Source: a virus (taxonomy: Duplodnaviria; Heunggongvirae; Uroviricota; Caudoviricetes). From it: a DNA stretch of 33,493 nucleotides. The DNA lies in IMG/VR virus record IMGVR_UViG_2579779076_000013, one strand, 5' to 3'. Of the stretch, positions 1 to 1,997 are shown in pieces (position 1 is the stretch's first letter; the number at the start of each line of letters is the position of its first letter). A model generated the notes under the pieces. It saw nothing but the letters and a program-made list of their open reading frames with translations. It was not told the DNA's origin and did no database searches. Made by a program: the position numbers and the translations under genes.

Positions 1-1032
1 TCAAAAAATTCCTATTGATGTTGGTAGTGTTGCCAGCGGATTAAACCGTAATGCAGTTTCCAGGTGATCCGGTGCCAGATGTGCGTAACGCATAGTCATT
101 TTTATGTCGTGATGTCCGAGGATTTTTTGCAAAGCAAGGATATTTCCACCCGACATCATGAAATGCGCCGCAAACGTATGGCGCAGAACGTGTGTCAGTT
201 GACCGCGAGGGAGCACGATAGACGTTTTTTCCATCACGGATAAAAATTGAAAATAGCAGTCTGTAAAGAAATTGAACCCATCAAGCGCCATGATCTCTTC
301 GTAAAGCTCTTTACTGATAGGGATGCTTCTGTTTTTCTTCCCCTTCGTTCTTACAAAGGTAATTCGGTATTTGGTCACTTGCGAGCGGGTAAGATTTATT
401 GCTTCTCGCCAGCGTGCGCCTGTGCTTAGGCATATCTTGACTACCAGTGCCAGAATTGGGTCCTGACGTTTGCAATCAGCCAGCAGTTCAACAATCTGCT
501 CATGGGTAAGCCATGCCATCTCTTTTTCTGCGATGGTGAATTTTCGCATGTTCTCCAGTGGGTTCGGATACGACCATTCGCCCAGGCGGGATAGTTCGCT
601 AAAAACACTACTTAGATAGCTTTGCTCCAGGTTAATGGTGACCGGGCTTGCTCCTTTCTTCCATTTCTCGCTGAAGTAGATCTCGCCTGTCAGGCGTTTA
701 TCTCGATAGTGGGCAAACATTTTAGAGGTGAGATCGGTTGCAAGAGGATTGCCCAGAGCGCCAACCATCAGCAGCAATTTGTCATAGACATGCTGCCCAG
801 CAGTCAGAGATTTACCATGTAGTTTGAACCATAGCTCAACCACGTCTTTCAGGGTTCGACGATCCACTGATTCGCCCAGCCATGGCTTTGATTCGGTTTC
901 TTCCATAGTGTGACGCTCAAAAGCCAGAGCTTCGCCTTTGGTGGCGAATTGTTTACACACACGACGCCCACTTCGTCCGGCGGGGTAACATTCGCAAAGC
1001 CATTTCCCTGTGGTGAGTTTTCGTACTGCCAT
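1..1032 (-). CDS. int: tyrosine integrase (P2 Int-like)
   Basis: ORF track 1..1188, but P2 Int-like sequence begins at the internal Met (MAVRKLTTGKW...), which has a GGAGG RBS 9 nt upstream on the minus strand. Tyrosine-recombinase motifs present: TGARWRE, HVLRHTFA, MRYAHL. Stop codon at window positions 1-3. Confidence 0.9.
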   Translation of the reverse strand: MAVRKLTTGKWLCECYPAGRSGRRVCKQFATKGEALAFERHTMEETESKPWLGESVDRRTLKDVVELWFKLHGKSLTAGQHVYDKLLLMVGALGNPLATDLTSKMFAHYRDKRLTGEIYFSEKWKKGASPVTINLEQSYLSSVFSELSRLGEWSYPNPLENMRKFTIAEKEMAWLTHEQIVELLADCKRQDPILALVVKICLSTGARWREAINLTRSQVTKYRITFVRTKGKKNRSIPISKELYEEIMALDGFNFFTDCYFQFLSVMEKTSIVLPRGQLTHVLRHTFAAHFMMSGGNILALQKILGHHDIKMTMRYAHLAPDHLETALRFNPLATLPTSIGIF

Positions 1033-1063
1033 AAAAAATGCCCTCCAGTAGAGAGCATTTTTA

Positions 1064-1079
1064 CTGTATGTATAACCAG
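1064..1079. promoter_or_regulatory. LexA-box-like palindrome upstream of int
   Basis: TACTGTATGTATAACCAGTG fits CTG-N10-CAG with an AT-rich centre; one deviation from CTGT-N8-ACAG (CCAG). Lies about 32-47 bp upstream of the int start codon. Confidence 0.35.
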
Positions 1080-1220
1080 TGTCAATGTATGAAATCCTAC
1101 GACCATACATCTCACTGAAGCCATAATGAAGTTGGCTATTCTTTTTGCTATGTGAGCATGTAACTTTTGCGGTTAACCTGCGGCTCATTTTTATTTTAGA
1201 CGCAGATATAAAAGCAAAAG

Positions 1221-1412
1221 TTATCGTGAGTTTTTAGTACAGATTTTTTTGGATTTACTAATAGTTCCATCATTGCAAACGAATTTGCCATCTGAGGTAC
1301 AGTGAGAAACACCTCCCTTTTTCCCTGAGCAGGGATAATTTCTAGCATAGGTAGTTAGTGGGTTTAATAACAAAGAACATGATAAAACCACAAAAAATAC
1401 CTTACCAAGCAT
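1221..1412 (-). CDS. small secreted cysteine-rich protein (63 aa), moron in the cI-int operon
   Basis: Strong GGGAGG RBS 5 nt upstream of ATG. N-terminal signal-peptide-like segment [23 protein letters not shown], then a Cys/Lys/Gly-rich mature part. Visibly AT-rich relative to neighbours. Confidence 0.55.
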
Positions 1413-1427
1413 AGTTTCCTCCCGGTA

Positions 1428-1997
1428 CTATTTAACATACTTGACTGTTAAACTTATAATTTTACCAATTATTTCAATGTCTTCTATCTTACATTCGAAG
1501 GCTCTGTTTCCACCCTCGACGAAGATTCTTCCACCGGGTAAACGAGTAATGTCACGGATCGTTATTTCGCCATCAATACTTATTACCCATTTACCATCAC
1601 GTATATCATCAAATTCCTTATCACAAATAAATTCAGAATTATTATCTGTGATTACAAAAAGATTCTTGAATGCCGACGGTAGAAATTCTCTATCGAAAAT
1701 ATAAAAACCGTCTTCACACAAAGCCCCATCAGATAATACATATTTAGCAACTTCCATAGTATTTGTATTACCTGAAGTTTGCTTTGAACCATGCCCGGTT
1801 GTGAGCCAATTAAGCGAAGTGCCTGTTTCAAGGGCGCACTGGATTACCCATTCTGCTGGGAATGAGTCACGCATGTAGCGTGTGGCGAGTGTACTTTTAG
1901 AGATTCCTAAATGATCGCACAACGCCTGTCGAGTCTTGAATCCATAAGCTTCTACCATGCGCTCTATAGCGCCTCGTCCGCCTTTCTCCAAATTCAT
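1428..1997 (-). CDS. cI: CI-type immunity repressor (N-terminal HTH), 186-like
   Basis: ORF track 1428..2003 begins at GTG; the ATG two codons in is more likely. HTH-like segment TRQALCDHLGISKSTLATRYMR. Divergent from the apl/cII operon, the classic switch arrangement. Confidence 0.75.
   Translation of the reverse strand: MNLEKGGRGAIERMVEAYGFKTRQALCDHLGISKSTLATRYMRDSFPAEWVIQCALETGTSLNWLTTGHGSKQTSGNTNTMEVAKYVLSDGALCEDGFYIFDREFLPSAFKNLFVITDNNSEFICDKEFDDIRDGKWVISIDGEITIRDITRLPGGRIFVEGGNRAFECKIEDIEIIGKIISLTVKYVK

Follow-up and report, generated by a model that had tools for sequence, protein, structure and literature searches.

Accessory genes that are linked to the repressor and expressed in the lysogen are found in several temperate phages, such as rexAB in lambda and sim in P1. 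In the annotation of phage 186, cI, int, and orf69 form one lysogenic operon transcribed from pL/pE, and cI overlaps int. The YdcA family of small bacterial proteins appears under the labels K-12 YdcA, Pfam PF27300, NCBIfam NF007462/NF007463, and PRK10040. The function of chromosomal ydcA has been stated as unknown, but deletion of ydcA in E. coli W caused sensitivity to 300 mM 3-hydroxypropionate, and up-regulation of ydcA at pH 5 under YdcI has also been cited (PMC7642389). Our literature search found no functional study of the YdcA family, PF27300, or PRK10040. [quoted passage not shown] It is a stoichiometric part of the system, has two lobes and five disulfides, and contacts DotK, DotC, and DotD, lipoproteins of the cap, under the outer membrane (PMC8486379, PMC12716638). 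Published work treats Dis2 as Legionellales-specific.

The locus described here is at one end of a stretch of 33,493 nucleotides from a virus of the Caudoviricetes (IMGVR_UViG_2579779076_000013), which is called the window below. A first-pass annotation of the letters had pointed out a 63-aa open reading frame (ORF) with a strong ribosome-binding site between cI and int, on the same strand as both, and this description was correct. The ORF is on the minus strand, with its ATG at 1412-1410 and its stop codon at 1223-1221. The cI stop codon (TAG) is at 1430-1428, which leaves a gap of 15 nt between cI and the ORF. RefSeq starts cI at the ATG at 1997 (189 aa) and the mechanical ORF starts it at the GTG at 2003 (191 aa). 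Beyond cI, divergent apl/cox-like and cII genes are found on the plus strand. The features of the locus are as follows.

1..1032, minus strand: tyrosine integrase, P2/186-type (Pfam Int_N 7.4e-32 and Phage_integrase 7e-22; RefSeq)
1033..1220, minus strand: spacer between ydcA and int, 188 nt (blastn against relatives; promoter/terminator scan)
1221..1412, minus strand, stop codon included: ydcA-family coding sequence, 63-aa precursor (ORF list; RefSeq; NF007463; phrog_6000)
1224..1343, minus strand: predicted mature domain, 40 aa, with four invariant Cys (invariant columns; pI; AF2 model; nucleotide conservation)
1344..1412, minus strand: predicted signal peptide, residues 1-23 (hydropathy; invariant Ala23; pattern in homologs; high dN)
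1418..1422, minus strand: GGAGG ribosome-binding site, 5 nt before the ATG (read from the sequence)
1428..1997, minus strand: cI repressor, 186/P2 CI type (Pfam Phage_CI_repr 2.8e-33 and Phage_CI_C 2.7e-27; RefSeq)

As was also noted on first reading, the ORF is AT-rich, with a GC content of 34.9% compared to 51.3% for the whole window. The GC contents of the surrounding parts are 39.8% for cI, 36.7% for the spacer, and 47.6% for int.

The ORF product is 100% identical to WP_000900883.1, annotated in RefSeq as "YdcA family protein." It matched the NCBIfam equivalog NF007463 with 115.8 bits (cut-off 93, E 5.3e-34) and phrog_6000 with an E value of 1.9e-34. In addition, close homologs of the product have a precomputed Pfam assignment to PF27300, "YdcA." The ORF belongs to the named YdcA family (PF27300, NF007463), and the gene is already catalogued and not an orphan. 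The exact protein was found on at least 1000 contigs. A query of 241 nt, consisting of the ORF and its flanks (window 1190-1430), matched 648 of 5426 complete E. coli genomes (~12%), including BL21(DE3) at locus B21_RS23140, where the encoded protein is 98% identical. In E. coli UC4224, whose chromosome matches the first 3 kb of the window with 100% identity, the prophage adjoins rcdA.

Conservation of the gene was examined in 82 fetched loci carrying the same prophage type (80 from IMG/VR, plus UC4224 and BL21). All 82 copies are intact, and three protein alleles are found among them. Compared to the BL21 allele, the mature part has nine synonymous changes and one non-synonymous change, giving a dN/dS of ~0.02. 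Synonymous sites are saturated in comparisons with loci from another E. coli (L087), Klebsiella (L091), and Hafnia (L093), and dN is 0.05-0.08 in the mature part and 0.65-0.95 in the signal peptide. The ORF is, thus, a real, functional coding gene under strong purifying selection on its mature part. A chance open frame or a decaying remnant without a product might be suspected from its short length, its AT-richness, and the name "hypothetical protein" in some RefSeq annotations. A chance frame is ruled out by the RefSeq identity, the matches to family models, the low dN/dS, and the saturated synonymous sites with the peptide kept. The intact state of every sampled copy, a family of 455 clusters, and the strong ribosome-binding site also count against this explanation, which the conservation pattern has already refuted and to which we assign practically no weight.

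Three further observations were made at this locus. An overlapping ORF of 50 aa (1196-1348), in another frame of the same strand, was treated as a chance frame. Between the window and BL21(DE3) (L006), nine synonymous differences are found in the mature-coding half of ydcA and one in the signal-peptide half, while the upstream cI is 98% identical. This packing of synonymous differences next to a nearly identical cI suggests a recombination junction inside ydcA. Lastly, a 3 kb contig labeled "MAG: Bacillota bacterium" (L097, JAEWTL010000113.1) carries the cI-ydcA-int segment with a 100% identical YdcA. The Bacillota label is probably the result of binning contamination.

The first-pass annotation had described the N-terminus as signal-peptide-like and the mature region as short and rich in Cys, Lys, and Gly, and both descriptions hold. 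The N-terminus contains Lys4, a hydrophobic core (Kyte-Doolittle 9-mer values up to 2.7), and T-Y-A before the mature part. Signal peptidase I cleavage is predicted after Ala23, which is invariant in an alignment of 24 sequences. The same pattern is seen throughout the family. The 76 distinct homologs collected from 80 species genomes include 75 with a hydrophobic core at the N-terminus, 75 with a basic n-region, and 74 with an Ala located 2-6 residues ahead of the conserved Pro-Cys-Ser. Export was called by heuristics (hydropathy) together with this family-wide pattern. Furthermore, a leader that varies freely before a mature part that hardly changes, as is seen here, is characteristic of exported proteins. 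These data suggest export of the 63-aa precursor by the Sec pathway, with cleavage after Ala23. One homolog is labeled a lipoprotein in UniRef. This label was rejected for the ORF product, which has no lipobox and whose Cys12 is inside the hydrophobic core. Homologs that keep Cys12 have Ile, Val, or Phe before it, and the other homologs lack it.

The mature part of 40 aa contains four Cys and has a pI of 9.7 and a net charge of about +7 (~+6.8). The invariant columns of its portion of the 24-sequence alignment are P27, C28, S29, K32, G33, G34, C38, F44, C46, D48, G49, S52, S54, K55, and C58, and all 16 invariant columns of the alignment are present in the ORF product. The AF2 model shows a beta-hairpin, with a pLDDT of 80-88 in the mature part and a mean of 75. 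The mature-coding part is also the only stretch of ydcA that is conserved at the nucleotide level in divergent prophages. The mature product is likely a periplasmic beta-hairpin domain of ~4.3 kDa, presumably held by two disulfides formed from the four Cys.

Between ydcA and int, the promoter/terminator scan did not detect any terminator-like sequence on the minus strand. Co-transcription of ydcA with cI and int in the lysogen is the natural reading, because the three genes are on the same strand, no terminator-like site is found in between, and cI and int of phage 186 are annotated as parts of a lysogenic operon. The part of the spacer next to int (1033-1121, ~90 nt upstream of the int ATG) is conserved in divergent relatives, whatever lies upstream of it. 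A promoter-like site on the minus strand at 1085-1057 (a match to TTGACA-17-AAAAAT) is located there. This could mean that int has its own regulatory region or promoter. The other ~100 nt of the spacer (1121-1220) are lineage-specific by blastn, and their position is that of a cargo slot in the relatives.

The order of the genes was compared in relatives whose cI is 98, 71, 70, 59, and 32% identical to that of the window. A YdcA gene directly follows cI in all of them, and its mature domain is 97.5, 92, 87, 86, and 74% identical, respectively. The hosts of the relatives with 98-59% cI are BL21, other E. coli, Klebsiella, and Hafnia. The relative with 32% cI is the Haemophilus phage HP2, which has a YdcA homolog of 60 aa whose ATG overlaps the cI stop codon (ATGA). 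The HP2 homolog (L001:2920-3102, plus strand; NC_003315.1 complement 2486-2668) is unannotated and is present in phage S2 also. In HP2, it is followed by a gene for a signal-peptide protein (orf1, 254 aa) and then by int. The same cI-ydcA-int order was found in Yersinia and Pasteurellaceae genomes. Int and cII can be 97-100% identical beside a different cI module, which indicates that an immunity module comprising both cI and ydcA is exchanged as a whole. For example, L087 has a 71% identical cI and carries ydcA, while Klebsiella phage 4LV2017 has a 48% identical cI and does not. The gene had first been described as inserted in the operon. Given its position directly after cI in divergent relatives, it is more aptly seen as the constant companion of a single cI lineage than as an insertion unique to one phage.

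Relatives with 71%, 70%, and 59% cI have a cargo gene between ydcA and int. One type of cargo encodes a 443-aa KAP NTPase that matches PDC-S20, a candidate defense system in PADLOC, with an E value of 1e-171. The other type is a 347-aa ORF of no assigned function. The cargo-slot regions are listed below.

L087:4198-5529: cargo-slot region
L093:4247-5290: cargo-slot region
Window 1121-1220: counterpart of the slot, consisting of the spacer alone

The only nucleotide stretches common to the divergent relatives are mature-coding ydcA and the ~90 nt upstream of int. A minor defense hotspot of P2, between integrase and primase, has been listed previously (2026 NAR paper, PMC13586616).

Most deposited phages of the 186/P2 type do not carry ydcA, including 186 and 4LV2017. 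A tblastn search of 50,697 phage records did not find an Escherichia phage with a ydcA homolog, so the initial statement that no counterpart of the gene was known in P2 is valid as far as deposited phages are concerned. Homologs were found in Haemophilus, Moraxella, and Acinetobacter phages, and those of the Moraxella and Acinetobacter phages are in the structural-gene region. None of the 50,697 records contains a cI more than 55.6% identical to that of the window. This common immunity type is, therefore, unrepresented among them.

A bacteriocin-like peptide was among the roles originally proposed. As would suit an antimicrobial peptide of the bacteriocin or microcin type that the lysogen releases, the product is small, cationic, Cys-stabilized, and predicted to be exported. 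The gene content, however, makes this role highly improbable. The neighbors are cI and int, with no adjoining genes for immunity, processing, or outer-membrane export, and the cargo downstream in relatives is the KAP NTPase or the 347-aa ORF instead of immunity or export genes. Also, a Sec signal delivers its protein to the periplasm only. K-12 ydcA is a chromosomal copy outside any prophage, and the family, which extends across alpha-, beta-, and gammaproteobacteria, is nearly invariant in sequence across these classes, unlike diversifying toxin families.

The YdcA family was examined at large by a profile search of 1.84 billion representative proteins, which gave the 455 clusters, and by scanning one genome per species. 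Members were found in unrelated neighborhoods across the three proteobacterial classes, and 58 of 72,556 plasmids carry a homolog. Among the 76 homologs, the median net charge of the 33-residue core is +5. Variants include tandem proteins of two and three copies and a two-domain form with a C-terminal CxGPRGGxYC module. Three Providencia loci (L137, L167, and L172) encode YdcA followed by Lys/Ala/Glu-rich repeat tails (KEKASKAADK-like) of 150-200 residues. The YdcA domain is also found N-terminal to secreted nucleases of three unrelated folds, as listed below.

SNase: P0112 and an ORF of L170
Endonuclease_NS: P0185, P0161, and P0197
PLD-like: P0198

The SNase fusion of L170 is a 250-aa ORF containing the match at L170:4001-4147. 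Separately, SNase genes directly adjoin ydcA in two of the species loci.

Several names attached to the family or to the ORF were set aside. The UniRef cluster label "Conjugal transfer protein" looks like an annotation artifact because so few plasmids carry a homolog and no conjugation genes were found alongside in the contexts examined. Relatedness to namesakes called ydcA (in the gonococcal genetic island, in pS88, and the Bacillus rhomboid protease) is not shown. For the ORF itself, a match to GULLO2-like_3rd (Pfam, E 0.075) was considered a sub-threshold chance match, and a match to the lpg1681 family (NCBIfam, E 0.11) was considered noise.

The fusions to secreted nucleases of three folds and the strongly basic character of the domain fit nucleic-acid binding. 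One possible explanation of the gene is superinfection exclusion, in which a cationic periplasmic peptide would block DNA entry by phage infection, conjugation, or transformation at its periplasmic step. In lambda, rexAB are co-expressed with the repressor, and Sim of P1 is processed and periplasmic. The peptide would be co-expressed in the manner of rexAB or act like Sim. The gene is within the immunity module and co-inherited with cI, the slot just downstream holds the candidate defense gene in relatives, and homologs are found in phages of three other genera. On the other hand, PADLOC gave no match to a known exclusion or defense homolog at E <= 0.01, and many copies are stand-alone genes on chromosomes or plasmids, away from phages. 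Injected phage DNA is also generally thought to be shielded in the periplasm. On balance, we consider exclusion in this form unlikely.

Outside prophages, genomic neighbors are heterogeneous and point to no pathway. In Escherichia and Shigella, chromosomal ydcA is located beside cytochrome b561. The prophage protein could do whatever chromosomal YdcA does, acting as a host-fitness factor under envelope or acid/organic-acid stress with no role against other elements. The 3-hydroxypropionate sensitivity of the deletion and the cited up-regulation at pH 5 support such a factor, as does the chromosomal copy by cytochrome b561, and the high conservation of the mature domain across proteobacterial classes would fit a universal envelope target. 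However, the phenotype is a single indirect one, from one study and without a mechanism. This explanation also does not account for the close association of the gene with cI in three P2-like lineages that have diverged, or for the recurrent nuclease fusions. We regard it as possible, though somewhat unlikely.

Next, the family profile was compared with known structures. The top match in the PDB was Dis2 (7MUC chain AN, E 9.9e-6), to whose score the signal peptide contributed in part. When the query was limited to the mature part, Dis2 remained first at an E value of 0.07, and Foldseek with the AF2 model also placed it first with a probability of 0.84. In the reverse direction, Dis2 homologs that lack a signal peptide matched only the YdcA models in NCBIfam (E 2e-4 to 1e-3). 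In 3/4 of these matches there were two matching stretches, which is consistent with both lobes, and one Dis2 homolog has a precomputed assignment to PF27300. A comparison of YdcA and Dis2 by hhalign gave an E value of 3.3e-5 and a probability of 72%. Together, these results make homology of YdcA and Dis2 probable, as a remote relationship whose matches are individually weak once the signal peptide is removed.

Since Dis2 contacts DotK, DotC, and DotD under the outer membrane, remote homology to its lobes raises another explanation, that YdcA is an accessory subunit that docks on a secretion, pilus, or lipoprotein complex of the host and tunes it. The fusion of one family member to the C-terminal domain of VasL, from a type VI secretion system (T6SS), points in the same direction. 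This explanation is very unlikely, though, in view of the single lobe with 4 Cys compared to two lobes with 10 Cys in Dis2, the lack of secretion-system genes (T4SS families included) among the neighbors at the 80 species loci, and the low plasmid count, with conjugation genes never found alongside. At the locus itself, the neighbors are cI and int.

Taking these findings together, we lean, with modest confidence, toward YdcA being a repressor-linked, lysogen-expressed periplasmic binding module that serves as a conversion or exclusion factor. Based on the gene order and the analogy to phage 186, cI, ydcA, and int would form one transcript that starts at the lysogenic promoter. YdcA would, in consequence, be made continuously in the lysogen, as part of an immunity module that recombines as a unit. 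Steady production within the immunity module would make ydcA a lysogenic-conversion gene (a "moron"). The precursor would be exported by Sec and cleaved after Ala23, and a small, disulfide-held domain, predicted by remote homology to be a stand-alone version of one Dis2 lobe, would fold in the periplasm. There it may bind a conserved, probably polyanionic ligand of the envelope or a nucleic acid near the outer membrane. Candidate ligands are nucleic acid, lipid or LPS head groups, and a lipoprotein complex. The binding-module reading comes from the Dis2 homology and the nuclease fusions, which could reflect envelope anchoring instead of nucleic-acid binding. The gain for the lysogen would lie either in keeping out incoming DNA or in a more robust envelope.

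A more specific and quite doubtful version is that YdcA proteins are single-lobe relatives of Dis2 and periplasmic binders of DNA or another polyanion, one of which is kept at the repressor by prophages of the P2/186 and HP2 types as a 40-residue barrier to phage, conjugative, or transforming DNA. If this barrier exists, it would represent a type of repressor-linked exclusion factor not previously described and would provide the first function for both the YdcA family and the Dis2 fold.

The prophage protein is very common, being encoded by roughly one of every eight complete E. coli genomes, and is presumably made in every lysogen. In P2-like phages of Enterobacteriaceae, Yersinia, and Pasteurellaceae, its gene is coupled to that of the immunity repressor. 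Since the gene was already catalogued, our finding adds no new element. What is added here is that ydcA stays linked to cI even in distantly related P2-like phages, that the family is probably related to Dis2, and that the domain is fused to nucleases. The Dis2 homology and the fusion to three kinds of secreted nucleases are new leads that were not found in the literature searched, and they provide the testable idea of a periplasmic module that binds polyanions or the envelope. If borne out, this idea would account for a lysogenic-conversion gene that is found widely and would assign a first function to a fold whose structure is solved but whose role is unexplained.

The prophage gene can be compared to four known systems. 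Like lambda rexAB, orf69 of phage 186, and sim of P1, ydcA would have a place in the transcript that maintains repression of the prophage. By analogy with the 186 operon, this place means that its product should be made in every lysogen. These genes have no sequence similarity to ydcA, and the YdcA product is far smaller. Dis2 is similar in that YdcA, too, is predicted to be an exported, disulfide-rich mini-domain and in that each Dis2 lobe has the pattern (C)Cxx(M/R)GG(I/V)...G..(V/L)VCN(N/D)G..S..C, which is common to YdcA. In contrast to the two lobes and 10 Cys of Dis2, prophage YdcA has one lobe and four Cys and is much more basic. Conservation of the Lys residues typical of YdcA does not extend to Dis2 and, thus, the ligand of YdcA need not be that of Dis2. 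Prophage YdcA is not a Dis2.

The N-terminal modules of the SNase, Endonuclease_NS, and PLD-like proteins contain the same YdcA domain, but in the prophage it is alone, without a catalytic partner in the protein or in neighboring genes. As a member of the YdcA family, the prophage protein has the same size as K-12 YdcA and the rest of the family, and likewise a signal peptide and a core of ~35 residues with four Cys. The core common to the family and the ORF product is PCSGxKGG(V/I)SHC...(K)F(V/I)CxDG(S/T)xSxSKKxC. Over the part that aligns, the prophage protein and the K-12-type copy (loci L142 and L143) are ~57% identical. The genes also differ in location: prophage ydcA is found inside the cI-int operon, while K-12 ydcA stands alone on the chromosome, next to cytochrome b561.
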